Assembly (NCBI GenBank): GCA_964475485.1
Contig: CAYYWY010000007.1
Coordinates: 15,849-79,848, forward strand
DNA: 64,000 bases
Direction of reading: 5' to 3'
Source of the DNA: an uncultured Nitrospiraceae bacterium
Lineage (GTDB): Bacteria > Nitrospirota > Thermodesulfovibrionia > Thermodesulfovibrionales > UBA9159
Below, piece by piece: positions 12,046-62,342 of this stretch (positions within the stretch are counted from its first letter, which is position 1; the number at the start of each line of letters is the position of its first letter). Below the pieces are notes generated by a model. It was not told the DNA's origin and made no database searches. It saw only the letters and a program-made list of their open reading frames with translations. The position numbers and the translations under genes are program-made.

Positions 12046-12049
12046 ATAA

Positions 12050-15004: not shown

Positions 15005-15711
15005 CGACCACTCTTTATTTGATCAGGCACGGAGAGACAGAATGGAGCGGTGCAAGACGCTATTGCGGGAGCATCGATGTGCCCCTCAATGAGAAGGGGA
15101 TGGACCAGATGAGGAGAGCCGCCCTTTTCGTGAGAGAGCATCTGAAAACTTCGACTTTGTCAAAATACTCAAGCTATTTAAGGGACCTCAATAGCAAGGA
15201 AAGGGCGAGCTCGGAAAGCGCTGGTCTTCCGGAGTTCCCGGAGCCGGTCTTGTCCGCGGTCTATTCTTCAGATCTGCGGAGAGCCTTTAAGAGTGCGGAG
15301 ATCGTGGCCGGGTGCCACGGTTTACAGGCCGTTGCGGTACCGGATCTGAGGGAACGGAGCTTCGGTGTCTGGGAGGGCATGACGTTTACTGAAATAAGAG
15401 AGAGGTATCCTTCGGAGTTCGAGTCCTGGGCCGGCAACCCTCTGAAGTATCATCCCGTGGGCGGAGAGAGCACCCATGAGGTGCGGGACAGGGTCGTTCC
15501 GGCGATTGAGGGGACACTGCAGGGGCACTCAGGCAAGAACATCGCAGTGGTTGCCCACGGAGGAGTGAACAGGATAATCCTCTGCCACTTCCTAGGGATG
15601 CCGTTGAAGCACATCTTCAGGATCGAGCAGGACCACGGCGCTGTGAACATCATCGAATTTTGGGAGAGATATCCTGTCGTGAAACTCATAAACGGAGTAC
15701 CGTATGATTAG
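15001..15711 (+). CDS. cobC: Histidine-phosphatase family protein, probably alpha-ribazole phosphatase CobC, with a low-complexity insertion
   Basis: 'LYLIRHGETEWS' (RHG motif), 'SSDLRRA', 'VVAHGG'. Last gene of the btuFCD operon. Confidence 0.7.
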   Translation: MTTTLYLIRHGETEWSGARRYCGSIDVPLNEKGMDQMRRAALFVREHLKTSTLSKYSSYLRDLNSKERASSESAGLPEFPEPVLSAVYSSDLRRAFKSAEIVAGCHGLQAVAVPDLRERSFGVWEGMTFTEIRERYPSEFESWAGNPLKYHPVGGESTHEVRDRVVPAIEGTLQGHSGKNIAVVAHGGVNRIILCHFLGMPLKHIFRIEQDHGAVNIIEFWERYPVVKLINGVPYD

Positions 15712-15744
15712 CCGTTAATACACCTGCTTTCAGCAGGAAAAGAG

Positions 15745-15950
15745 GGGTATACAAGGGGAATCCCGTAGATCCGGGAACTGCCCCGCAACTGTGAAGGGAA
15801 CGAAAGCCATATAAGCTCGTGGCTCATGGTTAACAGCTCATAGTCTGTGAACTGAGACCTGCGAGCTTCGAGCCAAAGAGGCCACTCGGCTTTAAAAGCC
15901 GGGGAAGGCGGGCAAGTAGGTAGATGCCCTGAGTCAGGAAACCCTGGATA
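15745..15950 (+). promoter_or_regulatory. Cobalamin riboswitch 2, with an enlarged variable region
   Basis: 'AAGGGGAATCCCGTAGATCCGGGAACTGCCCCGCAACTGTGAAGGGAACG', 'GCCACTCGG..CCGGGGAAGGCGG', and B12-box-like 'GAGTCAGGAAACCCTGGA' (15931-15948). Lies upstream of the btuB-like receptor. Confidence 0.8.
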
Positions 15951-16098
15951 CCTCGGAAACGTTATCCTTCGAGGGAAAAGGAGGTTTGCTATGAGACGGA
16001 ATACATGATAGCCGGAAATCAGTCCATACCTTAGCGGATCCGCCTAGGCGGACAGTCAAGGGTCAATAATTGAAAATGATCAAAAAGGAGAAAGGGTT

Positions 16099-46754: not shown

Positions 46755-47912
46755 TCATCCTATCCTCCTAAGCCCGTCAGCGACCCTGAGTTTTATTGCC
46801 CGCCAGGTCGGAAACAGGGCAGCGACGAATCCCACGACGACCGAGGCAACGATATCCATGTAGATGGACTCAGGTTCAACGATAAAGACAGGGAAATACT
46901 GGCTCAATGAATCGCCGAACATCTTTGCCGCAGGAAAGGTAAGCGCAATCCCAAGCGCGCATCCAAGGGATGAAATGAACAACGACTCCCCGAATATGAG
47001 TTTTGCGATATGCCAGCCGCCGAACCCGAGGGTCTTCATGATGGCATATTCCCCCATACGCTCCCTCGCGGTCATGGCCATGGTGTTTGCCATCACCGCC
47101 ATGATGATGACGATTACGACGAACGATACGATCTGAATGACGATGACGATGGCCTCTGTCATCGCGATGAAACCGAGCTGGAAGGCCTTCTCTGTTTCCG
47201 TTATCGTCTCGGCAAGGGAGTTCTTGAACATCTTGTCGATGGCCACCGCCACTTCGGCTGCCAGCTCGGGTTTCGTTACCCCCACGACATACCAGCCTAC
47301 CTGATCGGCCCGGTGCGGGGCCGTCTTCTTCAGGGATTCGTTGAGGTAATCCCAATGGAAAAAGAACTGAGTCTCGTCGGTGCCCTCCTGCGCTCCTCGA
47401 TAGATGCCACGAATGTTGAATTCCCAGTTGCCCGGGAATATAGTCCCCTTGAGCGTGATCGTGTCGCCTATCTTCCAGCCGAACCTTTCAGCGGTTTTTA
47501 TGCCGACAACGGCTCCTTTCCTGTCCCTGAAAAAGGAGTTCTTCTGTACCTCCGGCAACAGGAATTCGGGGAAAAGGTCAAGGGCGCTTCTTGCTTCCGT
47601 CGCAAAACTGGGAAAGAAATTCTTTTCGGAGATGTACACGCCCCCGAACCAGTATGAGTAACCCACTTCCTTCACTCCCGGTACCTGGCGGATCTTGTCC
47701 TTGTATGAAAGGGGAAGAAAAAAGACGAGGGAAATGGAATTCCTCGTGATCAACCTGGTCGCCGAGGACGCCTCCACGCCGGCATACCACGCGCTCACCA
47801 CAGTGCGCAGGAGGCCGAAGGCAAGGATCGCTATGGTGATACCCAGGACAGTGAGACCGGTGCGGAGTTTATGTCGAAACGCGTTTCTGAAAAGCAGTTT
47901 CAGTATGTGCAT
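46755..47912 (-). CDS. FtsX-family ABC permease (MacB/LolC-like), copy A
   Basis: '[24 protein letters not shown]' plus a periplasmic domain and FtsX C-terminus. 385 aa. Confidence 0.85.
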   Translation of the reverse strand: MHILKLLFRNAFRHKLRTGLTVLGITIAILAFGLLRTVVSAWYAGVEASSATRLITRNSISLVFFLPLSYKDKIRQVPGVKEVGYSYWFGGVYISEKNFFPSFATEARSALDLFPEFLLPEVQKNSFFRDRKGAVVGIKTAERFGWKIGDTITLKGTIFPGNWEFNIRGIYRGAQEGTDETQFFFHWDYLNESLKKTAPHRADQVGWYVVGVTKPELAAEVAVAIDKMFKNSLAETITETEKAFQLGFIAMTEAIVIVIQIVSFVVIVIIMAVMANTMAMTARERMGEYAIMKTLGFGGWHIAKLIFGESLFISSLGCALGIALTFPAAKMFGDSLSQYFPVFIVEPESIYMDIVASVVVGFVAALFPTWRAIKLRVADGLRRIG

Positions 47913-48621
47913 TCAGGATGCCTTTTTCGAGATGTCTGATGGCATGGGCCTTCTCCGCTGCGCGGGGGTCGTGCGTCACCATGATAATGGTCTTTCCGAT
48001 CTCATGAACAAGACGTTCCATGAGGTCCAGTATCTCCACGGCAGAGACCCTGTCCAAGTCACCCGTCGGCTCATCAGCCACGAGGATGGTCGGATCGGTA
48101 ACAACGGCGCGGGCAATGGCGACGCGCTGCTGTTGTCCGCCGGAAAGCTGGGAAGGGTAGTGGTCCATGCGGTCGGTAAGATTGACCATCCCAAGGGTGA
48201 TTTCCACATGCTCCCTGCGCTCCTTCTTCGAAAGATTGGTGAGCAATAATGGAAGTTCCACATTTTCGAAAGCGGTGAGCACAGGGATCAGGTTGTAGAA
48301 CTGGAAGATAAAACCGACGTTGAAGGCCCGCCAGTGAGCAAGCTCGGTCTCGGTGAGGGAGGTGATATCGAGGCCTCCGACGAGAATCGTGCCGCTGTCG
48401 GGCCTGTCTATCCCGGCGATGAGATTTAGCAGTGTTGTCTTGCCGGACCCCGATGGTCCCATCAGGGCGAGGAATTCACCTTGCGCAATGTCGAGATTTA
48501 TGTCCTGGAGCACAGGCAGTGTCTGGTTGCCGCGCCGGTAGGATTTGTTGAGACCCCTGATTGTTACAATAGGCTCTTTGATTTCCATGGTTTTGGATAC
48601 CTTCGCCCTGTCTTCATTCAT
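47869..48621 (-). CDS. ABC ATP-binding protein (MacB/LolD-type)
   Basis: '[23 protein letters not shown]', '[15 protein letters not shown]', '[11 protein letters not shown]'. An alternative start at 48588 is possible. Confidence 0.85.
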
Positions 48622-48643
48622 CCGGGCAGGAGCGATGGGTTGA

Positions 48644-49891
48644 TTACTTTTCAGCGACCTTCACCCGGATACCGCTCTTCAGTTTCTCGAGAGGCTTCAA
48701 TACTACTCTGTCACCGGTCTTAACACCTTCGAGCGCCTCCGTCATGTCCCCGATACGTTCCCCAAGAGTCACCGGTGTTTCGACAGCCCTGTCTCCCCTG
48801 ACGAGAAAAACCACCGTCTTCCCGTTGCGCGTCGTTATCGCCGCAGGATTAACGGCCGTGCGGGGTCTCTTTTCCGCCTCTCTTACCTCTCTTTCGAGAA
48901 AGGCGACCTTCGCGCTCATTTCAGGCAGTATCCGGCCGTCTCTGTCCAAAAAACGCACTTTCACCAATACCGTGGCCTTGGTACGATCTGCGGTGGGTAC
49001 GATCATGTGCACCACGCCCCGGAAGCGCGTCTCCGGAAGAGCATCGAGTTGTATCTCGCAGGGCTGCCCCACTTTCACCTGTTCGAGATTCGATTCGGAG
49101 ACATCCACCTCCACCTGAAGGGAACCCATGTCTGCAATGTTGACGACAGCCGCTTTTGCGTTCGCCGCAGCGCCCAATGGGGTGACGATGTCGCCTATGT
49201 CCGCGTTCTTGGTCAGCACAACGGCGTCAAAGGGGGCCCTGATGAATGTGTACTCCACAGCGACGTCGGCGTTCTTCAGGGCGGCAGCGCTTGCCTTCAC
49301 TGCAGCCTCGGCGCCTGCAACCGCGGCGGCCGCCTTTCTGTATCGTGCCTCAGATGCATCGAATTCCGCCTTCGAGATATATCCCTTCCCTACCAGATCC
49401 ACGTTCCGTTGAAAGAGCAGCATGGCGTCGTCCAGCTCCGCCCTGGCCTGCTCTAGACCTTGTTGCGCCACGCTCAGGTTCGCGGCAGCCTGCTCCCTGA
49501 CAGCGATCACATCGTCACCTTCAAGACGTGCGATCACCTCCCCCCTTTTTACACTGTTGCCCTCCTCCACGAAAAGGGAGACGAGACGGCTCGTGATCTT
49601 TGACGACACGGCTGCCTTTCTCTGGGCGACCACATAGCCGCTGGCGTTGAGGAGGGTGAATGTCTGCGACGCATAGATCTGTGTGACGCTGGTTGTCTCA
49701 ACGGTAACTGCAGGGGCAAGGATGCCGGTAAAATAGAGAAATCCAAGGACAACAACAAGCGCAGAGGCAGCAGCCCAGCGGAGGAGGCGCTTCTGCCTCC
49801 TCGGCCGGACCATTGCCTCTGCCTTGTCGATCCTCAGCTTTGAAATGTCTTCATCAGGCATACAGATGCTCCTTGGAAAAATATCTGTCAT
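48644..49891 (-). CDS. Efflux periplasmic adaptor (HlyD/MacA family)
   Basis: N-terminal TM anchor, long Ala-rich coiled-coil, and beta-barrel C-terminus. 415 aa. Confidence 0.8.
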   Translation of the reverse strand: MTDIFPRSICMPDEDISKLRIDKAEAMVRPRRQKRLLRWAAASALVVVLGFLYFTGILAPAVTVETTSVTQIYASQTFTLLNASGYVVAQRKAAVSSKITSRLVSLFVEEGNSVKRGEVIARLEGDDVIAVREQAAANLSVAQQGLEQARAELDDAMLLFQRNVDLVGKGYISKAEFDASEARYRKAAAAVAGAEAAVKASAAALKNADVAVEYTFIRAPFDAVVLTKNADIGDIVTPLGAAANAKAAVVNIADMGSLQVEVDVSESNLEQVKVGQPCEIQLDALPETRFRGVVHMIVPTADRTKATVLVKVRFLDRDGRILPEMSAKVAFLEREVREAEKRPRTAVNPAAITTRNGKTVVFLVRGDRAVETPVTLGERIGDMTEALEGVKTGDRVVLKPLEKLKSGIRVKVAEK

Positions 49892-50129
49892 TATAACAGA
49901 TTCTTCCTCGCCCTAACCCGGTTTGTTCGTAGGTTTCCTTGTTTGAGTTGGCATCCGTCTCTCGGCAAGACAACAGCCGTTGCCGACAGTACTGGGCTCT
50001 CTGCACCCAAGGGCACTTTGTTCACATGCATCGTAAATGTCCCGAGTTTTAGGACCTGCACATAACCCGGGTCTTGCCTTTCGAGCCGGACATTCAACTC
50101 TGTTTATGAATAAGCCGGGCCGAAGGTGA

Positions 50130-50720
50130 CTATTCTGTTCTACACCGGATCTTAATGGAAAGGAGAGGGAGGGAAATGAGAACAAGGATACCGCCCTGGA
50201 TTACGATCAGGGTCTTCACACCTGCGATGGTTATAAGATAAAAAGATGTGAGGAGAGTCCCCATGATACTCCCGAAGGTCGAAAGTGCGTAGAGGGTCCC
50301 TATCGTCCTTCCGGACGTATGGAGACTGCAGATCATGAGCCTTGCCGTATATGGGCTCACGACGCCGAGAAAAACAGAGGGTATGAAGAAAAGGATCGTG
50401 GAGGCAAGAAGGGGGCTCAGTCTCATGCCCATGTCCTTGGCAAATATCCAGTCGGACACGGGGTTGCCGTAAAGGGGAAAAGTGATGAAGAGGACGCCAG
50501 ATGAGATGATAATCAAGCCCAATTTTCGCGAGGAAGGATTCATGTCGGCTATCTTCCCTCCGAGGTAGTATCCCGCCGAAAGCCCGGCAAGGAAAACGCT
50601 GATAAGACTGCCCCAGACGAATACGGAGTTCCCGAAATTCGGGGCAAGCACCCTGCTACCCAGTATCTCGAAGGACATGACCACCGCGCCGCAGACAAAG
50701 ACGATTATCTTGATCATCAT
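50130..50720 (-). CDS. Membrane protein resembling the N-terminal membrane module of fused 'MFS/spermidine synthase' proteins
   Basis: 'FVCGAVVMSFEILGSRVLAPNFGNSVFVWGSLISVFLAGLSAGYYLGG' and 5-6 TM segments. Confidence 0.6.
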   Translation of the reverse strand: MMIKIIVFVCGAVVMSFEILGSRVLAPNFGNSVFVWGSLISVFLAGLSAGYYLGGKIADMNPSSRKLGLIIISSGVLFITFPLYGNPVSDWIFAKDMGMRLSPLLASTILFFIPSVFLGVVSPYTARLMICSLHTSGRTIGTLYALSTFGSIMGTLLTSFYLITIAGVKTLIVIQGGILVLISLPLLSIKIRCRTE

Positions 50721-50733
50721 CGAATTTCTCGTA

Positions 50734-51711
50734 TCAGTTATCGGCTTTCATATGCCTGTAAAGATTCACTGGGGCAAAATCATCCGTAAGGACCTTTGCA
50801 TTTGTCCTGTACTCGTCGCAGTATTCGCACGTGCTGCCAATAGCCGACAGATCGACATCCATTTTCTTCATCGACTGGATCCTCCGGGCCTTTGTGGAGA
50901 TCTCCTCGTTACTCTTTATTGTCTTGCTCTTTGTTGCGATGAATATGAAATTGTTCGACCTTCTGCCCTTAAAGATGTAGAGGTGGGGGAATTCCTTCTC
51001 GTATGTAGCGACCATGGAGTTGAAGAATCTGTTTCTGAACTGCGAGAGGATATTCGCGACCACGACGCCGTCATCCTTCAGCTTCCCCTTCACCTCTCTG
51101 AGGAATTCTACTGTCGTGAGGTGAAAAGGTATATCACCGCCCTGATACGCGTCCAGGAAAATAATATCATATTTCTTAGGCGTCCTCTTGATATACACCC
51201 TGCCGTCGCTGACATGGACCTTCATATTGTTGTTTTCGGTGAAGTAAAAATACTTTTTTGCTATCTCAACAACATCAGGGTCAAGCTCGACGACATCGAC
51301 CGTCGCCTCAGGGTAATACTTGTTGAAATACCTGGGCATTGAGCCTGAACCGAGACCGATGTAGAGAACTTCCCTCGGCTCTCTGTCAAGGAAGGCAAGG
51401 GAGACAAAGGAGATCTGCGCATACTCGAAAAGGAGCCTGTCGGGGGCGTTCAGATAAATTCCGCCTTGTATCCCGTCCCTCTTGTTGCTGTAGTAAAACC
51501 TTTCTCCTTTTGAGGAGTCCTCCAGCACGACCAAGCGCTGATAGAGAGAATCCTTTTCATATATAACCTTCTCCGTCTTCTGCCCCGCCAGGCAGGGGAG
51601 ATGGAACAACAAAAGATAAATGACGATTGTTGCCGCAAATAACTTTCTTATCACCGCGCTCAGCTCCCTTTGTAGTTTACTACATTTTCTCCGGATGAAG
51701 GAAGCCGGCAT
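50734..51711 (-). CDS. Spermidine/spermine synthase-like SAM-dependent transferase with an N-terminal membrane anchor
   Basis: 'VLYIGLGSGSMPRYF', 'VDVVELDPDVVEIAKKYF', 'DIIFLDAY'. The ATG at 51711 avoids overlap with the upstream gene. Confidence 0.7.
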   Translation of the reverse strand: MPASFIRRKCSKLQRELSAVIRKLFAATIVIYLLLFHLPCLAGQKTEKVIYEKDSLYQRLVVLEDSSKGERFYYSNKRDGIQGGIYLNAPDRLLFEYAQISFVSLAFLDREPREVLYIGLGSGSMPRYFNKYYPEATVDVVELDPDVVEIAKKYFYFTENNNMKVHVSDGRVYIKRTPKKYDIIFLDAYQGGDIPFHLTTVEFLREVKGKLKDDGVVVANILSQFRNRFFNSMVATYEKEFPHLYIFKGRRSNNFIFIATKSKTIKSNEEISTKARRIQSMKKMDVDLSAIGSTCEYCDEYRTNAKVLTDDFAPVNLYRHMKADN

Positions 51712-51718
51712 ATTCGTT

Positions 51719-52327
51719 CTATCGAAGTGGAGCGCCATTTAAGAATGCCTCAAACCTATCTATCCCTTTAAGGAAGGTCGGTATCCTTGCGGGAATTCTT
51801 TTAGTTCTATATATGGGCTTGAACTCAAGGGTGTTTGCCTCTCCTTCTCCAAGACTTATCTCCACCTCCGTGAAGTAGTTGTCCTCATGAAGACCAAAGA
51901 ATACTTTGTGTGTCCCCGCTTGAAGTCTTACTTTCTTTTCAAGAACGTACTTTACACCTTCCCCTGCTTCCGGATCACGGCTTGTTTTGCCGTCCTCAGC
52001 ATGCGCTGGTTTACTGTCTTTCATGCCTTCCGCTTTCCATGTTCTGACATGGCCATCGATGTTGATCAGGAACGGATAGGCCGGCTTACCGTGGAGCGAT
52101 TCCCTTGATTCGCCGATGTAATATCCTTCGACATGGGTTTTGATATTCGCTTTGATGATAAGGTCGGCAAAGCCGTTAGGAACCGCACCCCCGTTTTCTA
52201 TCTCCGTGAAGATATCTGTCTTTTCACCATGCGCCTTGATCTGTATTTGCCTGGCAGCCGTCCCGCAGCCTGCAAGTATCCCCAAAAGCAAGACCGCTGC
52301 AGCAATCACCGTTATTTTTATTTTCAT
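51719..52327 (-). CDS. Lipoprotein, function unknown
   Basis: Signal peptide with lipobox 'LGILAGC'. Confidence 0.65.
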   Translation of the reverse strand: MKIKITVIAAAVLLLGILAGCGTAARQIQIKAHGEKTDIFTEIENGGAVPNGFADLIIKANIKTHVEGYYIGESRESLHGKPAYPFLINIDGHVRTWKAEGMKDSKPAHAEDGKTSRDPEAGEGVKYVLEKKVRLQAGTHKVFFGLHEDNYFTEVEISLGEGEANTLEFKPIYRTKRIPARIPTFLKGIDRFEAFLNGAPLR

Positions 52328-52361
52328 TAATATGTCTCCATCCTTATGTGGTTAAAGTGTT

Positions 52362-52694
52362 CTATAAAATCTCACCCCTGCCGATCTTATATGCCCTGCT
52401 GACCTCAGAGACGTAGATCTTCCCATCACCGCGAAGGCCTGTACGGGAAGCCCTGTCGATCACCGCTGCAATCTCGTTCGTAAGGGCGTCCTCACAGAAA
52501 ATTTCGATCTTCACATATTTCGCAAAGTCAATAAGCTCATCAACCGATGGACACGATGCATCCTTTTCTTCACGGCGTCCGAACCCCCGGACGTCCATTA
52601 TGGTCATTCCTCTGAGGCCCTCCACTTTCTGAAGTGCCATTGCAACGTCGTTCAGTTTGTGCGGCTTGATGTATGCCTGAATCTGTTTCATCAC
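52362..52694 (-). CDS. PII-like (GlnB-superfamily) signal protein linked to the RND pump
   Basis: 'MKQIQAYIKPHKLNDV..MTIMDVRGFGRR', 'GDGKIYVSEV'. 110 aa, 8 nt downstream of the RND gene. Confidence 0.75.
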   Translation of the reverse strand: MMKQIQAYIKPHKLNDVAMALQKVEGLRGMTIMDVRGFGRREEKDASCPSVDELIDFAKYVKIEIFCEDALTNEIAAVIDRASRTGLRGDGKIYVSEVSRAYKIGRGEIL

Positions 52695-52701
52695 ATCCTC
52701 C

Positions 52702-55700
52702 TCATTTCATCACCGTTTCCTCTTCAGGGTTTATGGCAAACCACCGGTACAGGGCCGGAATCACCAGCAGCGTCAGAATGGTGGACGTGACCAACCCGCC
52801 GATTACTACTGTGGCAAGAGGCCGCTGGACCTCGCTCCCTGTACCGCTCGAAAGGACCATGGGCACAAGTCCGAGCGCTGCGGCTAGTGCCGTCATAAGC
52901 ACCGGCCTTAACCTCAGGCAGGCCCCCTGAATACAGGTCTCCTCCATAGGGAGTCCTCCTCGAAGAAGCTGATTCAGATAGGTCACGAGGACCATGCCGT
53001 TCGCAAGGGCGATACCGAAGAGAGCGATGAACCCGACAGAGGCAGGGACGGAGAGGTTCTGGCCGGTGATCCAGAGGCCCAAAACGCCGCCCACGAGGGC
53101 AAGCGGGATGTTCAGGAGTATCAGGAAGGAGTTCTTCAATGAGCTAAACGACAAATACAGGAGGAGGAACACTATCAGGAACGTGACAGGTATCACCAGT
53201 ATAAGCCTTCTGTTTGCCTCTTGCTGAAGCTCGAATTGCCCTCCCCAGCTGGAAAGATATCCCGGTGGCAGACTGACCTTGGCATTAATCGCGGCCTGGG
53301 CATCCTTCACAAAAGAGCCGATGTCCCGGTTCCTCACATTGCACTGGACTGTGATGAAGCGCTGGTTGTTTTCCCGCGTCACCTGCCGGGGACCCACGAT
53401 TTCTTCAATCTTCGCAAGCTCGGCAAGAGGCACCTTCGGCCCTCCGGGCGCAGGGACAAGGATATTGCCTATCGCCTCGGCACTGTCTCTCGTTCCTTGT
53501 GTATAGCGCACTAGGATGTCAAACCGCTTGATTCCCTCGAAGACTTGTCCCGCCTTCTCACCGCCGACAGCGGTTCTGATAATCTCCTGGACATCCTGCA
53601 CGTTAATGCCGTAACGGGAAATGGCCTGCCGGTTTATCGTTATCCTTAGCTGGGGCGTTCCCGCCGCCTGGTCCTTCTGCACATCCGCCGCACCCGGCAC
53701 TTCCCCGATAACCTTCTCGATCTCCCCGGCCTTTTCTTTCAGCACTTCCAAGTCCGGCCCGAATATCTTGATCGCAATGTCTGCCTTGATGCCGGTCAGA
53801 AGCTCATCAACGGCAGCAGCTATGGGCTGAGTGAAATTGAACTGGACCCCCGGGAAATCCTCAAATGTCTTGCTCATCTTGTAAGTGAGTGCATCAAGGG
53901 ACTTTGCCGTTTTCCATTCACTTCTCGACTTTAATCCTACAAATGCCTCTGCGTTGTTTACAGGGTCCGCATGCGCCCCGACCTCTCCTCTTCCGACACG
54001 CGTTACGACCCTGGTCACTTCGGGGAATTTCGACATGAGCCTCTTTTCGAACCGAAGCATGGTGTCGCGCGCTTCCTCAAGCGAGATGGAGGGTGCCATG
54101 GTTGCGCGGACAAGCATGTCCCCTTCGTTCAGCCGGGGGACGAACTCTGATCCGAGAAAGAAGAAGAGAGCGCCGCCCATGGCTACGAGAAGAAGGGAAA
54201 TTGTGATTGCTGTCTTCGGGCATCTGACGAAGTGGGTCACGGCAGGACGGTAGTACTTTAGAAGCCAGCGAATGGCAAAAACATCGGAATGGCCTTCTTG
54301 AGCGGTTGCCTTTGGCCTTCTTATAAGAAATGTGCCGAGCACGGGGACAAAGAGCATTGCGAAGAAGAGAGAACCGAGCATCGCAAACGACATGGTCTGG
54401 GCGAGGGGCCTGAACGTTTTGCCTTCGACACCCTGGAGAGCGAAGAGGGGGAGAAAGACGATTGCAATGATCAGGAGCGAAAAAAGGATGGGTTTCGCAA
54501 CCTCAATGCATGAGCGGGCGATGACATGGATGAAGGGCTCGTCGGGGTCCGCATCTCTCAGGTGCCGATCTATATTCTCGACCATGACAACAGCGCCATC
54601 GACCAGAAGACCGAGTGCAATCGCAAGGCCGCCGAGGGACATGAGGTTGGCCGAGACTCCGAAATACCGCATGAGGAGAAAGGCGAAGGCGAGAGAGAAG
54701 GGAATCGCGCTCAGCACGACGATGCTCGGACGTATCCCGCCGAGCATGACGAACTGAATGGCGATAACCAGCGCCACAGCTTCAGCAAGTGCTTTTGTGA
54801 CGGTCGCAATACACTTCTTTACAAGCGTTGCCTGATCATAATAGGGGACAACCCTGACCCCGTGCGGGAGTACCTTGTTGATCTCCTCCATCCTTTTCTT
54901 TATGTCGGCAATTACCGTAGAGGTGTTTGTGCCGATCAGTTTGAGCACCATGCCTACGACCGCCTCGCCGGCGCCGTTCATTGTTGCCAGACCTCTTCGG
55001 ATCTCACCGCCGATGGCCACTTCTGCTACTTGGCTCAGAAAGACAGGCGTGCCCTTCCTCGATTTGAGGACGATGTTTTCGAGATCAGAGATCTTTTCGG
55101 CGAGGCCGACGGACCTAACTATGTATTCCTCGGCATTTCTGACGATAAACTGCGCGCCGACGTTAGAGTTATTCGCCTTTACGGACTCGATGATATCCTT
55201 CAGTGAAAGGTCATATCGCAACAGGTCGGGGGGCCTGATCCTGATGTGGAACTGCTTGACTTCGCCGCCGAGGGAGAGCACTTCGGTCACGCCGGGGACT
55301 GTCTGGATGTTGAATTTGATGAGCCAGTCCTGTATCTCGCGCATCTCCTCGGGGGTCCGCTTGCCGGTTTTATCCTCCAGTACATAGAAAAGGACCTGGC
55401 CCAATCCCGTAGAGACCGGTCCCATCTCAGGGACGCCGAACCCTTCGGGTATCTCCTCGCGCGCGTGCTGAAGCCGCTCGTTGACGAGTTGACGGGCAAA
55501 GTAGGTGTCCGTCCCGTCCTTGAAGTAGATGTTTATGACGGAGAGGCCGAAGTTCGAGACAGAGCGGATTTCCTTAAGGTCGGGCAGGCCGCTCATCGCA
55601 GCCTCGACAGGGTAGGTGACATATTTTTCCACTTCCTCGGGCGCAAGTCCCTCCGTCTCTGTGAAGATCTGAACCAAACTCGGCGTAACATCCGGAAAGG

Positions 55701-55812
55701 CGTCAACCGGGAGCTTCACATAGCTGTAATATCCGGCCGCCAGCACCAGCAAGGCGATCATGCTTATGAGGAGACGGTTCCTGAGCGAGAAATAGATTAT
55801 CTTGTCCATCAC
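52702..55812 (-). CDS. Heavy-metal-efflux-type RND inner-membrane pump (CusA/CzcA family)
   Basis: 1036 aa, 12-TM RND architecture, 'GLLVDGAVVMVENI' in TM4, flanked by adaptor and TolC-like genes. Confidence 0.85.
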   Translation of the reverse strand: MMDKIIYFSLRNRLLISMIALLVLAAGYYSYVKLPVDAFPDVTPSLVQIFTETEGLAPEEVEKYVTYPVEAAMSGLPDLKEIRSVSNFGLSVINIYFKDGTDTYFARQLVNERLQHAREEIPEGFGVPEMGPVSTGLGQVLFYVLEDKTGKRTPEEMREIQDWLIKFNIQTVPGVTEVLSLGGEVKQFHIRIRPPDLLRYDLSLKDIIESVKANNSNVGAQFIVRNAEEYIVRSVGLAEKISDLENIVLKSRKGTPVFLSQVAEVAIGGEIRRGLATMNGAGEAVVGMVLKLIGTNTSTVIADIKKRMEEINKVLPHGVRVVPYYDQATLVKKCIATVTKALAEAVALVIAIQFVMLGGIRPSIVVLSAIPFSLAFAFLLMRYFGVSANLMSLGGLAIALGLLVDGAVVMVENIDRHLRDADPDEPFIHVIARSCIEVAKPILFSLLIIAIVFLPLFALQGVEGKTFRPLAQTMSFAMLGSLFFAMLFVPVLGTFLIRRPKATAQEGHSDVFAIRWLLKYYRPAVTHFVRCPKTAITISLLLVAMGGALFFFLGSEFVPRLNEGDMLVRATMAPSISLEEARDTMLRFEKRLMSKFPEVTRVVTRVGRGEVGAHADPVNNAEAFVGLKSRSEWKTAKSLDALTYKMSKTFEDFPGVQFNFTQPIAAAVDELLTGIKADIAIKIFGPDLEVLKEKAGEIEKVIGEVPGAADVQKDQAAGTPQLRITINRQAISRYGINVQDVQEIIRTAVGGEKAGQVFEGIKRFDILVRYTQGTRDSAEAIGNILVPAPGGPKVPLAELAKIEEIVGPRQVTRENNQRFITVQCNVRNRDIGSFVKDAQAAINAKVSLPPGYLSSWGGQFELQQEANRRLILVIPVTFLIVFLLLYLSFSSLKNSFLILLNIPLALVGGVLGLWITGQNLSVPASVGFIALFGIALANGMVLVTYLNQLLRGGLPMEETCIQGACLRLRPVLMTALAAALGLVPMVLSSGTGSEVQRPLATVVIGGLVTSTILTLLVIPALYRWFAINPEEETVMK

Positions 55813-55820
55813 CGTCTCCT

Positions 55821-57035
55821 TTAGTGTGCGTGGCCGTCGCCGAAGGCGCCCTTGCCGAGCTGTGCCTTGAGGGTAAAACCGCCTTTTGCCACGTAGCGCT
55901 GACCGGTCTTGAGTCCTGACGTCACTTCCACGTTCATGTTATCGGACCTGCCTATCTTTATCGGCTGGAGACTGAAGCCCTCGTCAGTTTCGACAAAGAT
56001 CTCCGTCTTCTCGCCCTCCATGACAAGAGCTGTCTTCGGCACGAGGAGAGGAACGTTCACTTCATCCACCATTATCTTCGCGGTTACAAACAGCCCGGGG
56101 CGAAGCACGCTGTTCGGATTGGGCAATACGACGCGGGCGACTGCCGTCCTCGTCTCCTCTCCGGTGACCGGAGAAATATATGAGATGAGCCCTTTTGTGT
56201 CAGGTACCCTGCCGCCTGCCGATATCGTCACCTCCTGACCATTTCTGACGTACGGCATGTCCTTCTGGTAGACACTGATGTTCACCCAGACGGAGCTCAG
56301 GTCGGCGATCACGAAGGCGTCTTTATCGTCCTTCAGATATTCTCCCAACGCGATGTGTTTCTCGAGCACGGTACTGCCGAAAGGTGCCCTGATCTCGTAA
56401 TTTGTATAAGTCACGTCGGGCTGCAATGGGAGTTTTTCGACATATTCTTCGGAAAGGCCCAGCGCATGTAACTTCTGTTCCGCGGACTTCAACTCGATTT
56501 GTGCTTCGTCAAAGGTCTTTCTGGCCTCGAGAAAGTCGATCTCGGGAGAAATTCTCTTCTTCCAGAGCTCTTCTTCGCGCTTCATGTTCGCCCGTGCTAT
56601 TTCAAGCCGTTTGAGAGCGCCGAGGTACGCTGCCTTGGCGTCTGCAAGTTCCCCGCTGTCGATTACAGCGAGGAGTTCTCCAGCCTTCACCGTCTCACCG
56701 GCATTCTTAAGAACCCAGCGAACGACACCTGCAACACGGGGGACGATATGAGCGAGCCTGTTGGCATTCAGAACGATCTCACCGGGGAGCTCACGCTGCA
56801 CCGAGAGTCTCCCGGGACCGGCCTCTTTTACCTCGATGCCGAATTCTTTGATATCCTCGGGGTGGATCTTCACGAGTTTCTTATCGTCCCGTACCTCCTC
56901 CTTCCCTCCACCACGTCTCTCTTCTTTATGTTTTTCGGTCCCTGCCTTCTGAGGAGCCGGTAAATATTTCATCGAAAGCGCTCCGATGATCATTCCGGAA
57001 ATCGCAGCGAATATGATCAGTCCCTTGTTCTTCAT
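55821..57035 (-). CDS. RND periplasmic adaptor (CzcB/CusB-like)
   Basis: 404 aa with an N-terminal anchor, coiled-coil hairpin and beta-barrel domains. Sits between the TolC-like and RND genes. Confidence 0.8.
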   Translation of the reverse strand: MKNKGLIIFAAISGMIIGALSMKYLPAPQKAGTEKHKEERRGGGKEEVRDDKKLVKIHPEDIKEFGIEVKEAGPGRLSVQRELPGEIVLNANRLAHIVPRVAGVVRWVLKNAGETVKAGELLAVIDSGELADAKAAYLGALKRLEIARANMKREEELWKKRISPEIDFLEARKTFDEAQIELKSAEQKLHALGLSEEYVEKLPLQPDVTYTNYEIRAPFGSTVLEKHIALGEYLKDDKDAFVIADLSSVWVNISVYQKDMPYVRNGQEVTISAGGRVPDTKGLISYISPVTGEETRTAVARVVLPNPNSVLRPGLFVTAKIMVDEVNVPLLVPKTALVMEGEKTEIFVETDEGFSLQPIKIGRSDNMNVEVTSGLKTGQRYVAKGGFTLKAQLGKGAFGDGHAH

Positions 57036-57037
57036 TC

Positions 57038-58357
57038 TTATTCCACCTTCTCTTTGGTATCGTTCATTAGAAAAGCGCCGGTCAGTCTCTGAACATCGGC
57101 TTTTGATTTCTGATAGGCGGCAAGGGTTTCCACGTATTTCACCTTGGACTCAAATAGTGTCCTCTGAGTATCGAGAACGTCGAGATAGCCTAACTTCCCG
57201 TAACTGTATCCTTCGTGGACGGCATCGTAGGCACTTTGCAGGGCGGGAAGGACGCTATCTCTCAGTGTCTTCGCTTCAAGGAAGGAGGTTGACAGGGCCT
57301 GGTATGTCTCGGATAGTGCTGTTTGCGCCTTTAAAATGGCCGCCTTTTTTTCTTCCCCTGCCTTCGAAAGCCTTTTTTCCGCCTCCAGTATCCCGCCCTG
57401 ATTTCTGTTGAATATGGGCAGCGGTATTGTCATCCCCATGATGAAGGCGCTGGCGTGCGTTTCGTTAAGCCGTCTTATGCCTCCCGACAGAACTATGTCT
57501 GGAAAGCGGGCTGCTCTTTCCACCTTTAATGCGGCCTTACGTCGTTCAATCTCGTCATCCCACCGGGCGATATCCGGATTGATGGGAACCCGACTTGACA
57601 AGTCCTCATAGGTGGGAATTGAAGGGTCTATATCCAACCTTCCTTCGACTTTCTTGAAGTCAGCCAGGGGGCTTCCCCACGTGGCGGATAAACGCTTTCG
57701 TGCTGCCTCAAGAGAGCGTTTGGCGCGCTCCACTTCTATTCTTGTGAGAGATAATGTGGCTGATGCCTTTGTCTCGTCAATGGGTGAGACCTTTCCGGCC
57801 TGAACACGTGCAGAAGCCGTCCTGAATGCTTCCTCAGCGAGGCGCACGAGTTCTTCGGTCAGGGCCAGGCGGTCCTGTTCTATGACCACATCAATGAATG
57901 CCTTTGATACTTCTGCAACAAGATCGAGCCTCTTTGCCCTGTAGTCCCATTCAGATAGCTCCAGCTCCCGTGCAGCCAGCTCGACCCTCTTCGATATCTT
58001 GCCCCCGAGGAGTATGGGTTGGCTCAAAGTTACGGTTGACTCGGCTGCGTCAAAACGGCGGAACTCCTTGTTACCGTAAAAGTTCTCAAATTCAAGGTTG
58101 AACTCGGGGTTCGGAAGGAGCCGTGATTGCAGAACCAGCGCTTCACGGGCCTTTATCTCTATTAATGATGCCAGAAGATCGGGATTTCTCGAAAAGGCGA
58201 GAGAGAGAGCTTGATTCAAAGTCAGGACTTCCGCGGATGACGGTCTTCCTTTCAGAGCCTGAACGGCGGAATTGACAGGGCCGGCCGTTGCCTGAAATAT
58301 CCAGATCAGGGTTGTCAATAGGGCAACGGGATAAGCTAAGAAATATCTTAAATGCAT
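57038..58357 (-). CDS. TolC-family outer-membrane factor (CzcC-like)
   Basis: 439 aa with a signal peptide and duplicated helical-repeat pattern. First large gene of the operon. Confidence 0.8.
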   Translation of the reverse strand: MHLRYFLAYPVALLTTLIWIFQATAGPVNSAVQALKGRPSSAEVLTLNQALSLAFSRNPDLLASLIEIKAREALVLQSRLLPNPEFNLEFENFYGNKEFRRFDAAESTVTLSQPILLGGKISKRVELAARELELSEWDYRAKRLDLVAEVSKAFIDVVIEQDRLALTEELVRLAEEAFRTASARVQAGKVSPIDETKASATLSLTRIEVERAKRSLEAARKRLSATWGSPLADFKKVEGRLDIDPSIPTYEDLSSRVPINPDIARWDDEIERRKAALKVERAARFPDIVLSGGIRRLNETHASAFIMGMTIPLPIFNRNQGGILEAEKRLSKAGEEKKAAILKAQTALSETYQALSTSFLEAKTLRDSVLPALQSAYDAVHEGYSYGKLGYLDVLDTQRTLFESKVKYVETLAAYQKSKADVQRLTGAFLMNDTKEKVE

Positions 58358-58446
58358 ATAGATCCTCCTCGTGTGATTCTTGCCTCAGGCTGGCGACTCA
58401 GAGGCGTGCTCCTCCATAGAGCATAAGCGGAGAGACTACAGATGAA

Positions 58447-58866
58447 TCAGATAAGGAGGATGACGGTGCGGATGCTTTCGAGATAATCCTTGGATGGTAA
58501 GGGGGGAGAGGGCAGGAAAATATGACCTCCCTGATTCGTCAGAGAGACTGCCCGTGTTTGAAAGACGATAGCGACTGCATCAAGGAAAGACTTTGCATAT
58601 ACGGGCGCTCTTATGGTCAGTGCACTGCTTACAGATGGGATATCGGTGCACGGTCCGCAGCCGTCCTGAGGAGCATCGGTCAGCATTGAGGATACGACAT
58701 GCTTTCCACCCTCCTGATTGTTGCATCCGTCAACGAACTCAATGCCGAAATGTCCGTCTTCTCCAAGGCATAATACAGAGCCCTCCACCCTGAAAACGGC
58801 TGACAGGGCAAACAAAAGTAATAAAGAAGAGACAGGGAGTTTCACGAAGCGCCTCTTTTTACACAT
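58447..58866 (-). CDS. Exported Cys-containing hypothetical protein upstream of the RND operon
   Basis: The ATG at 58866 gives 'MCKKRRFVKLPVSSLLLLFALSAVF', a signal peptide. Contains several Cys, including 'DGCGPC'. Confidence 0.45.
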   Translation of the reverse strand: MCKKRRFVKLPVSSLLLLFALSAVFRVEGSVLCLGEDGHFGIEFVDGCNNQEGGKHVVSSMLTDAPQDGCGPCTDIPSVSSALTIRAPVYAKSFLDAVAIVFQTRAVSLTNQGGHIFLPSPPLPSKDYLESIRTVILLI

Positions 58867-59013
58867 ATTAAGTTCATTCTCACAGATCAAAGTATAATAA
58901 GTCAAGCGATTTCAAAATCCCCTCGGTTTACCGTTTCATCCAGATGACCTTCTGACGGCAGGGGGATTGGTTTCTCGGCCAGTACATGATCACGAAAACG
59001 CCTGAGAGGCATA

Positions 59014-60957
59014 TCATAGTACTGCCATCGCCTGTTTGGCGGCCCTGCGGCCTTCCTCGATCGCTCCGACCCAGTGCTGGTGACCGTTCAGTTCCGAGTG
59101 GCCGAAGGAGATCCTGCCGAAACGCTTCCTGAGAAGATAGCGGGGCGCGGGTGAGCCATCTTTGCCGAAATAGAAGCCCGGCTGCGGATTTACAAACGCA
59201 TGACCCCACCGGTTCAGGATAATTCCTGCGATATCCCTCCTTGGGTCAAATCCCAACCTGCCGAAAAGTCCGAGCATCTGTTCTCTTATTTTCATCTCAT
59301 AAGCAGAATAACCTGTCGAGAGCAGTTCCATGCGCCCCTTAATCCCCTGATCTTTAGCGGGAAGCCCGGGATAATAGAAGGGCACATAGAAAGTTATGAT
59401 AGCCGGCCTTTCAGGATCCAGGGAAGGCCTATAGTCTCCGACGATCATGGGCTGACGGATATTGCAGCTGAAACCGAATCCGTCGAACCACCGGCAGGCC
59501 GTCACTCCAAGCTTGTAAAGGAAACGCCAGTTCGTGACAGCGACATTGACGACCATGAAAGCAGAATGATGGAAATTGCTCAATGCCTGTCCGTATTCCC
59601 CGGGAAGGTCGCTTACGATCCTGCGGCTCACCTGCCCACCTGAAGCCACTACAGCGCAACGCGCCTTCAGGCGGTAAAGCTTCCCTCCCTTAAAATAGGT
59701 GATGAGGAGAAAATCTGATTTCTCCGGCTCGGAATCATGCCTTATCCGGACTGCCGTAGCGCCGAGGCGCATCCTGATACTGTTTTCAGAGTTGTCGAGG
59801 GCTCCGAAGTCGATAGGCCCATTGAGGATGTCTTCGAACCTCACGGAGCCTGAAATTGCCCCGGGGATAAGGGCCTTCACAAGATGACGCACAATGCCGT
59901 CATTGCCTCCCGGAAGGGAATGCCAGTCGCTTTCTTTTATAAGCGCAAGCCTCGAGTATCCTCCCGTAAAACCCTGAAAACCGGGCATCGCCACCTGATA
60001 TGCACCGAAGGCTGAAATGGCATCGCATCCCAAACCGATGCTGCTTGCGAGCACAGGGTCTGCGTACCTTGTGACGGCAGGGTTCAGACCCATCACTTTC
60101 TCGATATAGTTTTTGTAGGTCATGGTATCGAGCCACTGCTCAAAATCGTCGCCTTCATGGTATCTCTTCGTGCCGTCCCTCCAGATGAGAAGGTCCTTTC
60201 TTACCTCCTCGGGAAAGGGACTTCCCTCAAGACGGCGCTTCCATATATCCGGCATCCATCCGGATTCTCCGGTTTGGCGGTCTTTAAAGAGATATCCTAC
60301 GCTCGCGTGGATGTCGTGCCACAGCATGAAGCCGTAGTTTGTTCTGTCGAAGCGGAACATTGCGAGGTCCGGGTTCAAGTTCTGGTATTGGAAGTGACGG
60401 GGAATACCCAGCTCGGAGTATATGCGATAGCCATAAGCGGTGGGCTCATCAATTACGATAAAAGAGTTCGAACCCTGTGGTCCGATCAGTCTCTGGCCAT
60501 TGACAATGAACTCGTTCCGTTTCGCCTCGCCTCCGAAGACCTGATGGTTTTCGAGAATAAGGCACTTCTGACCGGGACGGCTCATCTTCTTGAAGTGATA
60601 GGCAGCCCCCAGTCCGCTCATACCGCCTCCGATGATAACAAGGTCGAAGATCTCTCGTGTATCGGTGACGTCCGCCGCAGCATCCGCGAAACGTCCGTCT
60701 CGCATCTCATGGGCGATTCGTATCACCTCTTCCGTATCGCCATTGGAGTTCGCATAATCGCCTACACCTCCATAACTGTCCCAGGAACCGGCCTGGGCTC
60801 TTAGATGAAGCGGGGCTGGGAGATCCAACAAGAGGGCGCCTGCTCCTATGAGGGTTGCATTGATAAAATCCCTGCGGGTTATTTTTCTGTCGATTCCAAG
60901 GAGGTTTCGATAGCGGGAGGACATTCTTTGTTCCGGCATCTCTTCGCCCCTGTTCAT
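59014..60957 (-). CDS. Tat-exported FAD/NAD(P)-binding oxidoreductase (amine-oxidase-like fold)
   Basis: Tat motif 'ITRRDFINATLIGAGALLL' and dinucleotide fold 'DLVIIGGGMSGLGAAY'. 647 aa. Confidence 0.7.
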   Translation of the reverse strand: MNRGEEMPEQRMSSRYRNLLGIDRKITRRDFINATLIGAGALLLDLPAPLHLRAQAGSWDSYGGVGDYANSNGDTEEVIRIAHEMRDGRFADAAADVTDTREIFDLVIIGGGMSGLGAAYHFKKMSRPGQKCLILENHQVFGGEAKRNEFIVNGQRLIGPQGSNSFIVIDEPTAYGYRIYSELGIPRHFQYQNLNPDLAMFRFDRTNYGFMLWHDIHASVGYLFKDRQTGESGWMPDIWKRRLEGSPFPEEVRKDLLIWRDGTKRYHEGDDFEQWLDTMTYKNYIEKVMGLNPAVTRYADPVLASSIGLGCDAISAFGAYQVAMPGFQGFTGGYSRLALIKESDWHSLPGGNDGIVRHLVKALIPGAISGSVRFEDILNGPIDFGALDNSENSIRMRLGATAVRIRHDSEPEKSDFLLITYFKGGKLYRLKARCAVVASGGQVSRRIVSDLPGEYGQALSNFHHSAFMVVNVAVTNWRFLYKLGVTACRWFDGFGFSCNIRQPMIVGDYRPSLDPERPAIITFYVPFYYPGLPAKDQGIKGRMELLSTGYSAYEMKIREQMLGLFGRLGFDPRRDIAGIILNRWGHAFVNPQPGFYFGKDGSPAPRYLLRKRFGRISFGHSELNGHQHWVGAIEEGRRAAKQAMAVL

Positions 60958-60995
60958 AAAGAACTCATGACGCTATCGGGCGAAGCATGAAGCGA

Positions 60996-62342
60996 TTATC
61001 TTCTCGCAGGCTCATCGATGCCGTATTTCTTCAGCTTGAGATAGAGGGTCTTCCTGTCGATGCCGAGGATCTGGCTTGCCTTTGACTGATTGCCGTTGGA
61101 TTCCTTGAGCACCGTAATGATGTAGTCCCTCTCCATATTCTCCAGGGTGGAGTGTATTCCCTGCTCCCTCTGTGCCTGCACGAAGGGGATCGAGAGGTCT
61201 TCAGCGCTTATATTTTCCGAGTCACAGAGGATCACCGCTCTTTCGATGATGTTCTCCAGTTCCCTTACATTCCCCGGCCAGTCATAATTTCCGAGTGCCT
61301 CCGTTGCCTCGGGGGTAAATCCGGAGATCTCCTTCGACAACTTCTGTCCATATTTTTTCAGAAAATACAGTGAGAGCTCAGGAATATCCTCCTTCCTTTC
61401 CCTGAGAGGGGGGATAGTGATGTTGATGACATTAAGGCGGTAATAGAGATCCTGTCTGAACCCTCCTGTCCTGATGAGGTCGGAGAGATCTTTGTTTGTG
61501 GCTGCGATCACCCGGACATCCACGGAAAGGGTCTTGTTTCCTCCGACCCTCCTGAACTCTCCTGAGTCGAGGAACCGTAGAAGCTTTGCCTGAAGCCCCA
61601 GGGGCATCTCTCCTATCTCATCAAGAAAAAGCGTTCCTTTGTCAGCCACCTCAACTATGCCATACTTGGTCTGGTGTGCACTGGTAAAGGCGCCTTTTTC
61701 GTGCCCGAAAAGTTCTGACTCCATGAGGTTTTCGGAGAGGGTTGCACAGTTCAGGGCGATGAGCGGGAAACCGCTCCTCTTGCTGTAATGCCACAGTGTA
61801 TTTGCCACCAGTTCCTTCCCTGTGCCGCTTTCTCCCTGAATGAAGACTGTGGAATCAGTGGGAGCTATCTTCCGGATGAGGGCGAGGATATTCCTGATCT
61901 TGACGCTCCTTCCGATGAAGTCAACGGGAGATTCCTGCCTGAGCAGTTCCTGCTGGAACTGCTGGTTCCGTATCTTGAGCATACCGTACTCATATGCCCT
62001 GTTTATGACGATCACCAGTTCGTCGAGTTTGTAAGGCTTTGTGAGGTAGTCATATGCGCCGTGTTTCATGGCCTCAACCGCCGTCTCTACGGTGGCCTTG
62101 CCGGTCAGGACAATGATGACCGGCGCTTCCGGGTCGGCCTTCAGCCTTTTCATGAGAGAGACGCCGTCAATGCCGGGCATGATAATATCGAGAAGGACAA
62201 CATCATATGCATTCCGCTTGATGAGATTCACGGCCGTCTCCCCGTCAGGGGCGACTTCCACAGAGAATCCCTTTCTGGAAAGCTCCTTCTTCAGGAGCCT
62301 TCTGAAGGGCTCCTCGTCATCAACTGCCAGTACCCTTATCAT
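60996..62342 (-). CDS. NtrC-family sigma-54-dependent response regulator
   Basis: Receiver '[18 protein letters not shown]', AAA+ 'GESGTGKE', 'GAFTSA' loop, and HTH '[22 protein letters not shown]'. Confidence 0.9.

Follow-up and report, generated by a model that had tools for sequence, protein, structure and literature searches.

A PII-linked metal efflux operon within a recurrent set of polyamine-enzyme-like genes in an uncultured Nitrospiraceae bacterium

Does a heavy-metal efflux operon of an uncultured Nitrospiraceae bacterium reach into polyamine or envelope chemistry, or do its last genes merely happen to lie beside it? The question is raised by a stretch of 64,000 nucleotides (nt) of contig CAYYWY010000007.1 (GenBank assembly GCA_964475485.1), called the window throughout, and by eight open reading frames (ORFs) in it, here named g1 to g8. 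They were originally predicted, from the letters of the DNA, as a czcCBA-type resistance-nodulation-division (RND) operon extended by a PII-like protein, a lipoprotein and spermidine-synthase-like genes. When we checked the ORFs of the window, all eight were confirmed as co-oriented genes on the minus strand (58866..50130). Their predicted identities were borne out by Pfam and NCBIfam scores, by the lipobox of g6 and by the signal-like N-terminus of g1: a small exported Cys protein (g1), an outer-membrane factor (OMF, g2), a periplasmic adaptor or membrane fusion protein (MFP, g3), the RND pump (g4), a PII-family protein (g5), a lipoprotein (g6), a spermidine-synthase-like protein (g7) and a membrane module (g8). 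The last three genes, which had been taken together as one extension, divide into two groups: g6 does belong with the pump (32 of 41 loci), but g7 and g8 belong with an additional gene that lies upstream of the array and resembles the spermidine dehydrogenase gene SpdH. With moderate confidence we therefore read the region as a composite of two units, probably co-transcribed, in which a pump operon (g1-g6) is nested in an envelope module formed by the SpdH-like gene, g7 and g8, hereafter the trio.

Two recurrent units in one array

The SpdH-like ORF encodes 647 amino acids (aa) on the same strand and lies 147 nt upstream of g1, outside the coordinates of the original prediction. In the comparison loci (designated by L and a number), it adjoins g7-g8 in 13 of 16 contexts, and the three genes stand next to each other with no pump nearby in L002/3, L004, L073 and L075. 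The gaps within the trio are 17-72 nt in L002, L072, L073 and L074, and the SpdH-like gene and g7 are about 530 nt apart in L004. Since g1-g6 and the trio each recur separately, we regard them as two units, with the pump operon lying inside the trio in the window. L004 and L008 share with the window both the SpdH-like gene and the sigma-54 regulator upstream of it (72-89% identity).

The two units are arranged in several ways where they lie close to each other. The exact order of the window is found in L062, a close relative (proteins 91-95% identical; g1 80%, g6 74%), and in L008/9, in which the flanks and g6-g8 are kept (54-83% identical; g8 78%) and the segment from g1 to the PII gene is a different paralogue (RND 49% and PII 36% identical). 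In L005, L007/15 and probably L013, the czc genes, the PII gene and g6 are followed by the SpdH-like gene and then by g7-g8, and in L074 (1277-11572) the co-oriented series g1-OMF-MFP-RND-PII leads directly, without g6, into SpdH-like-g7-g8 with gaps of 55-72 nt. Pump and trio are divergent in L072 and L019, and in L001/L029, where the series is ArsR-g7-g8-heavy-metal P-type ATPase, a czc-g6 operon lies 7 kb away. When we searched for insertion scars around the pump cassette, direct and inverted repeats were only short and at chance level, and no mobile-element traces were found.

The surroundings of the trio (L001, L004, L005, L008, L072 and L074) are rich in metal-homeostasis genes; the flanking genes encode ArsR, heavy-metal P-type ATPase, CDF, NicO, CbiM/CbiQ, NikR, HupE/UreJ and FeoB.

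Of 12 well-flanked contexts of the trio, 8 have a czc-type RND gene no more than 10 kb away, and these fall into five arrangements; the pump-linked contexts are interspersed with pump-free ones on a tree of g7 and g8. The window itself holds one heavy-metal efflux (HME) RND gene in 64 kb. When we calculated the binomial tail for 8 of 12, it was 0.03 if 36% of random 20-kb windows carry a pump and 2e-8 at 5%, a measure that ignores shared ancestry and the metal-island character of the loci. The original prediction had named conservation of the linkage as a check; the exact eight-gene order did not hold up (g7 is next in 0 of 41 g6 loci), whereas the wider neighbourhood did. Adjacency of trio and pump beyond chance is suggestive, and the trio appears to accompany some pumps as an option rather than to form part of them.

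The pump operon with its PII and lipoprotein genes

HME-RND pumps use the proton gradient to expel metal cations through the envelope. The pump core of the window conforms to this class in all three components. g2 matched PF02321 (OEP, E 4.8e-52) with two repeats, and its top NCBIfam match, the divalent metal exporter subunit IhpA, scored under the cut-off. g3 matched HlyD_D23 (E 2.7e-43) and TIGR01730 RND_mfp (141.5 bits against a cut-off of 94.9), with CzcB/NccB and IhpB as its best specific NCBIfam matches. g4 matched the CusA/CzcA family TIGR00914 over its full length with 1143.3 bits (cut-off 701.45), and its nearest solved structures are ZneA (1.7e-218) and CusA (3e-211), with AcrB far behind at about 1e-85. 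The OMF and MFP genes are co-oriented with the RND gene and adjoin it, with gaps of 2 and 8 nt. Judged by these family assignments, g1-g6 is a tripartite HME-RND metal efflux operon of a recurrent type. The gene order OMF, MFP, RND is the same as in the Czc, Zne and Cus systems of Cupriavidus metallidurans and E. coli (CzcCBA, ZneCAB, CusCBA), but the operon of the window contains in addition the conserved g1, PII and g6 genes and lacks czcD/RS-type genes. While the proton-relay motif in the fourth transmembrane (TM) segment of CzcA is DFG-DGA-VEN (D402/D408/E415), the corresponding motif of g4 reads IALGLLVDGAVVMVEN, i.e. ALG-DGA-VEN, in which the second Asp and the Glu are kept and the first Asp is replaced by Ala, like that of CusA.

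g1 begins with four Lys/Arg residues and a hydrophobic stretch, followed by conserved Cys and His residues, and gave no match in Pfam or NCBIfam. Its homologues are found upstream of the OMF gene in 11 loci (L005, L007, L008, L014, L019, L023, L047, L053, L062, L072 and L074), and C33, G38, H39, E43, C48, D68, G71, C73 and D75 are invariant in the family, with C70 present in at least 90% of the sequences. We consider g1 a probable periplasmic metal-binding accessory.

g5 matched PF00543 (P-II) with 66 bits against a cut-off of 25, aligned end to end with GlnB (E 4e-19), and keeps K58 and the nucleotide-binding B-loop TGxxGDGK (TGLRGDGK). It is not a canonical GlnB/GlnK: the PRK10858 score was 77.5 against a cut-off of 202, and in the alignment to GlnB the uridylylation site Tyr51 is replaced and Gln39 is changed to Arg. 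The gene begins 7 nt downstream of g4, an adjacency that recurs in at least 14 of 41 loci, and in this genomic context, linkage to a metal efflux gene, it resembles the PII-NG subgroup. According to PMC7726332, the subgroup was defined by Sant'Anna 2009 and is linked to cation/heavy-metal efflux genes; the connection between PII proteins and metal efflux with its mechanism unexplained, which the original prediction had mentioned, is thus already on record under this name. In G. sulfurreducens, Co(II) induces and Fur regulates a group of genes made up of czcABC (GSU2135-2137), the PII-NG gene GSU2134, the lipoprotein gene GSU2133 and hypothetical genes close by (PMC7726332); there the PII gene is co-transcribed with a czc-type pump, and a lipoprotein gene comes next.

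Two tandem PII genes, about 39% and 56% identical to g5, follow the RND gene in L014 (8188-8884) and L016 (3448-4366), an arrangement which suggests that there may be two PII subtypes tied to different pump paralogues. The recent PDB entry 9p1x contains two different P-II family chains, 12 copies of one and 6 of the other, and each shows weak similarity to g5. In the GlnK-AmtB complex, a trimeric PII protein docks on a trimeric membrane transporter. g5 is comparable to GlnK in that its gene stands beside that of a trimeric transporter and in that the B-loop and K58 are kept, but its T-loop sequence is different and Tyr51 is absent, and gating of the pump by g5 would be an analogy only.

g6 carries the lipobox L-A-G-C at residues 18-21, of which G20 and C21 are invariant in 19 sequences. 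No family match was found in Pfam or NCBIfam, and none of its 313 homologues carries a Pfam domain. In the family, 37 residues are invariant, including H79 and several acidic residues, and H65 and H140 are present in at least 90% of the sequences; these conserved His and acidic residues would fit metal binding. The AlphaFold2 model (pLDDT 81) is all-beta and had no significant neighbour in the PDB (best E 0.039, TM-score 0.22), and we gave up assigning a function from the fold, as this match was too weak despite the good model.

When we surveyed g6 with one genome per species, 52 loci were obtained from Nitrospirota and from Syntrophales, Smithellaceae and Geobacteraceae, in which g6 lies downstream of an RND or P-type ATPase gene. 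Among these, 41 loci have an upstream flank of 4 kb or more; in 32 of them an HME-RND gene precedes g6 on the same strand, in 24 within 700 nt, and in at least 14 of the 41 the gene immediately before g6 is a recognisable PII gene. The order RND-PII-ResB-CcsB-VKOR/thioredoxin-Zn/Cd P-type ATPase-g6 is found in L018 (3811-10600) and its relatives L011, L012, L016 and L017; in L018, g6 closes a mixed array of RND and P-type ATPase genes. Downstream of g6, no gene family was common to more than four loci, and the count of 0 of 41 for g7 as the next gene refers to loci whose downstream flank is 2 kb or longer. A Geobacteraceae locus (L028) contains a g6 homologue without g7-g8. GSU2133 could not be established as a g6 homologue: the 281 relatives of the g6 homologue from a Geobacteraceae metagenome-assembled genome all come from uncultured organisms and include no cultured Geobacter. 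On the evidence of these homologues, g6 is a conserved new lipoprotein family that normally closes metal-efflux operons in Nitrospirota and Desulfobacterota.

The SpdH-like gene and the split g7-g8 pair

In Pfam, the SpdH-like protein gave weak FAD/NAD-binding matches only. When it was compared with P. aeruginosa SpdH (PA3713; PDB 7d9f-j), residues 26-641 of 647 were aligned with an E value of 7e-58, and the two proteins (SpdH in PDB 7d9f) share full-length homology, a twin-arginine translocation (Tat) signal and the FAD dinucleotide-binding motif. The Tat motif ITRRDFI is located at residues 26-32 and is followed by a hydrophobic stretch and AQA, and TRRDFL is present in all 17 matches to SpdH-like homologues in the loci (14 distinct genes). 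SpdH cleaves spermidine to 1,3-diaminopropane and 4-aminobutanal and is predicted to be exported to the periplasm by the Tat pathway (PMC11107197). The pairing of the SpdH-like gene with g7-g8 has not been described for SpdH.

g8 and g7 correspond to the two parts of NF037959, the 'fused MFS/spermidine synthase' family (MFS, major facilitator superfamily). g8 matched profile positions 2-182 with 122.8 bits and g7 matched positions 241-478 with 128.5 bits, both above the cut-off of 40 bits, and together they span the whole profile. The usual members are one polypeptide with the membrane module first, either single proteins of 450-650 aa or double-module proteins of more than 650 aa, whereas g7-g8 are two genes with the enzyme first; L069-L071 and most family representatives have the fused order. 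We also considered g7-g8 as a frameshifted fused gene and rejected this, since the two halves stand in reverse order and each is encoded by an intact, conserved ORF.

The homologues of g7 comprise 489 matches, and every named source among them is an uncultured member of Nitrospirota/Thermodesulfovibrionales. The g8 module is far more widespread, with 12,773 cluster representatives at E <=0.001, mostly fused to a SpdSyn-like domain. Among the best 150 of these representatives, 63 have 451-650 aa and combine one module with the enzyme domain, 62 exceed 650 aa and usually contain two modules, and 19 are standalone at up to 300 aa. g8 is 71-81% identical across the Nitrospirota loci, and a metagenome scan with it yielded 8 loci, several of them short. 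PF07690 (MFS_1) matches 11 of 18 family modules (best E 1.8e-7), and the loop between TM2 and TM3 of g8, GGKIADMNP, resembles MFS motif A. A literature search found no studied member of NF037959.

The AlphaFold2 model of g7 (pLDDT 87) consists of a TM helix, an N-terminal beta domain and a Rossmann-like core, and its top structural neighbours in the PDB are aminopropyltransferases (TM-score 0.58-0.68) and METTL13. In sequence, g7 comes closest among solved proteins to an uncharacterised C. glutamicum protein (3gjy) and to the methyltransferase METTL13. g7 is above the cut-off for PF01564 but far under those of the speE equivalogs (TIGR00417, 62.9 against 249.55; PRK00811, 77.6 against 260). 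In true spermidine synthases, the Asp of the GGGDG motif selects decarboxylated S-adenosylmethionine (dcSAM); motif I of g7 is IGLGSGS (GLGAGA in the family), in which this Asp is replaced. G100, G102, E123, D125, D150, D168 and a C-terminal LTDDxAP are present in at least 90% of 120 relatives, and since these near-invariant residues are of cofactor-binding or catalytic type, the g7 domain looks like an active enzyme.

g7 has one N-terminal TM segment. In 96 of 97 fused relatives, the last module is followed by exactly one TM segment before the enzyme domain begins; the linker ahead of this segment has a net charge of +1.8, and the 30 residues after it have a net charge of -1.3. In 86 of the 97, the linker is more positive than the other side, with examples of 10 Lys/Arg in 33-37 residues. 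The termini of MFS proteins are normally cytoplasmic. Given one TM segment, a positive linker and cytoplasmic MFS termini, the g7-type domain is predicted to be periplasmic, on the same side as the SpdH-like protein, g6 and g1.

Envelope polyamines under divalent-cation conditions are known from P. aeruginosa, in which the PmrAB-controlled speD2/speE2 genes (PA4773-4774) provide surface spermidine. The enzymes of that system are soluble, cytoplasmic and genuinely dcSAM-dependent, unlike what is predicted for g7, and to our knowledge it has no MFS fusion, SpdH pairing or RND linkage.

Transcription of the array and the relation between the units

The features of the region are collected in Table 1.

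Table 1. Genes of the two units and a candidate promoter in the window.
Feature	Coordinates	Strand	Basis
g1: small exported Cys4/His protein	58447..58866	-	signal-like N-terminus, conserved Cys/His
g2: OMF, TolC/CzcC-like	57038..58357	-	PF02321
g3: periplasmic adaptor (MFP), CzcB-like	55821..57035	-	HlyD_D23, TIGR01730
g4: HME-RND inner-membrane pump	52702..55812, probable ATG start 55809	-	TIGR00914
g5: PII-family protein	52362..52694	-	PF00543
g6: lipoprotein	51719..52327	-	lipobox LAGC
g7: spermidine-synthase-fold protein, signal-anchored	50734..51654 (longest ORF to 51738)	-	PF01564, NF037959
g8: 6-TM MFS-like half-transporter	50130..50720	-	NF037959
SpdH-like FAD (possibly also heme) amine dehydrogenase, Tat signal	59014..60957	-	homology to PDB 7d9f-j
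Candidate sigma-70-type promoter for the pump operon, weak evidence	58876..58905	-	TTGACT-18-GAGAAT

The gaps from g1 to g6 are 89, 2, 8, 7 and 34 nt, and g7 and g8 are separated by 13 nt. The spacing of 2-34 nt that was originally given for all genes from the TolC-like gene onward is correct through g6 and for g7-g8, but not for the junction of g6 and g7. The longest g7 ORF overlaps g6 by 20 nt, whereas a start at the GTG at 51654 leaves a gap of 64 nt. Since this GTG has a ribosome-binding site (AAGGGAG) 7 nt upstream and yields 306 aa, the length of nearly all homologues, the real gap is probably 64 nt. The in-frame sequence before the GTG (51655-51738, minus strand) encodes a Lys/Arg-rich peptide, with 8 such residues in 32, which resembles the basic linker ahead of the last TM helix in the fused proteins of the family and could be left over from a fused ancestor.

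The candidate promoter upstream of g1 has an upstream TG and 9 of 12 matches, and sites of this kind are as abundant in the region as in shuffled sequence. When we scanned 49800-59200, there were 7 promoter-like matches (6.7 in shuffles) and 10 terminator-like matches (9.2 in shuffles), with neither kind in the g6-g7 gap, none inside the array above the shuffle expectation, and the stretch after g8 at shuffle level. The intergenic stretches gave unremarkable RNA folds (z -1.8 to +1.1), and a small hairpin with a U-run lies 3' of the SpdH-like stop codon. An Rfam scan of 49800-61200 found no match, including none to a NiCo/czcD element, and a search for sigma-54 promoters gave 41 matches in the window against 48 expected, none of them in the gaps near the regulator, the SpdH-like gene, g1 or g7. 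Since the gaps are short and no terminator-like signal stands out inside the array, a single transcript that starts at g1 or before it and runs through g8 is plausible, and the eight genes are probably co-transcribed in this genome.

Upstream of the SpdH-like gene, 60996-63928 (minus strand) encodes a GAF-PAS histidine kinase and a sigma-54-dependent response regulator, and the sigma-54 regulator adjoins the SpdH-like gene in L004 and L008 too. Directly downstream of g8, after a gap of 238 nt, 46755-49891 (minus strand) encodes a MacA-like adaptor, a MacB-type ABC ATPase and an FtsX-type permease; these genes also follow g8 in L062, and in L008 they come only past an inserted CbiM/NikR cluster. 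Elsewhere in the window, two cobalamin riboswitch aptamers were found at 12041-12234 and 15703-15964 (plus strand), with 100.2 and 50 bits, above the Rfam gathering score.

How might the two units work? g4, together with g2 and g3, would transport metal cations out across the envelope, driven by the proton gradient. By analogy with GlnK-AmtB, a trimer of g5 would sense ATP/ADP, dock on the cytoplasmic face of the trimeric pump and gate it, and g1 and g6 may act in the periplasm as metal-binding or assembly accessories. In the envelope module, the half-transporter g8 probably dimerises, and this MFS-like part may move an amine, a polyamine or a cofactor across the inner membrane. The g7 domain, anchored by one TM segment, would then modify the moved molecule at the periplasmic face, and the SpdH-like enzyme would oxidise or cleave the product of g7 in the periplasm. 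Every step here beyond family membership is inferred. Since the neighbourhood recurs in Nitrospirota, pump and trio are probably used together under metal stress, which makes a physiological coupling plausible, and the coupling of efflux to polyamine/envelope chemistry is modestly supported. A more specific proposal is that the trio is an extracytoplasmic amine-remodelling pathway, deployed with PII-controlled efflux to adjust the cation-binding chemistry of the envelope. g8 would hand a cytoplasmic polyamine or adenosyl cofactor to g7, and the Tat-exported dehydrogenase would process the product. We regard this proposal as speculative and doubtful.

Several points weigh against the reading given here for the two units. 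The ratio of pump-linked contexts becomes 8 of 16 if the flank-limited L064, L066, L067 and L068 are counted as negative, g7/g8 lie within 10 kb of g6 in only 2 of 51 species-representative loci, and the neighbourhoods sampled are few, belong to a single phylum and are uncorrected for shared ancestry. As g4 lacks the first acidic residue of the TM4 motif of CzcA, no metal is assigned to the pump. g8 itself gave no significant match to Pfam MFS_1, and a search of PDB sequences with the g8 family profile found no MFS protein. The predicted topology of g7 is an argument from the positive-inside rule and the MFS analogy, and a periplasmic site of SAM/dcSAM type (SAM, S-adenosylmethionine) would have no known cofactor supply.

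Here, we need to consider that the czc-PII-lipoprotein cassette might have been inserted in or next to the trio by chance, with g7-g8 read through for want of a terminator. We hold this to be possible, though on balance unlikely. The pump-free trios, the absence of g7 or of anything else conserved past g6 and the restriction of the exact order to L062 and L008/9 are what such passengers would leave, and chance proximity becomes likelier in loci that are islands rich in metal genes. However, five arrangements hold the units within 10 kb of each other, the PII gene is joined directly to the trio in L074, and L019 and L072 have divergent-promoter layouts. In addition, the window and L008 hold different pump paralogues at one and the same site, and the cassette lacks flanking repeats and mobile-element scars. 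At the other extreme, all eight or nine genes might form one integrated machine, in which the trio makes or remodels a molecule that the RND pump exports or needs for its activity, such as a metal-chelating amine. The tight spacing, the co-orientation and the single array of L074 agree with it, and the parts of the trio resemble those of metallophore pathways (aminoalkyl transferase, dehydrogenase and MFS exporter of Cnt/staphylopine). Nevertheless, this is very unlikely in our estimate: the trio is absent from most such pump operons of Nitrospirota and from all those seen in Desulfobacterota, it also occurs alone, and both of its enzymes are predicted to be periplasmic, unlike the known metallophore synthases.

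A further alternative concerns g7 itself, which might be an ordinary cytoplasmic spermidine synthase with g8 as its membrane anchor or as a polyamine exporter. The fold and the N-terminal beta domain do match those of aminopropyltransferases, PF01564 is above its cut-off, and Asp168 stands at the catalytic position. We give this little credence, since the speE equivalogs are far from being reached, the Asp of GGGDG is replaced, the nearest relatives by sequence are the C. glutamicum protein and METTL13, and the predicted topology places the domain outside the cytoplasm. Based on these comparisons, we keep to the composite of a pump operon nested in an envelope module.

The pump and PII part is a further case of a known, mechanistically unsolved pairing. 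What is new is a lipoprotein family that closes metal-efflux operons in two phyla and has neither a Pfam/NCBIfam family nor a PDB relative, as well as a steady Nitrospirota partner, the Tat-exported SpdH homologue, for the large family of fused MFS/spermidine synthases. New as well are the predicted extracytoplasmic position of the enzyme domain of that family and the recurrence of the trio beside PII-linked metal pumps. The most unusual element is the pairing of a predicted periplasmic domain of SAM-transferase fold with a Tat-exported homologue of a polyamine dehydrogenase. If the coupling is not true, the region is an ordinary metal-resistance operon with neighbours. If it is true, polyamine chemistry of the envelope would be joined to metal resistance, and there would be a handle on the function of a very large family; the remodelling pathway, if true, would give the first periplasmic enzyme of SAM/dcSAM-transferase fold and a function for more than 12,000 protein clusters.

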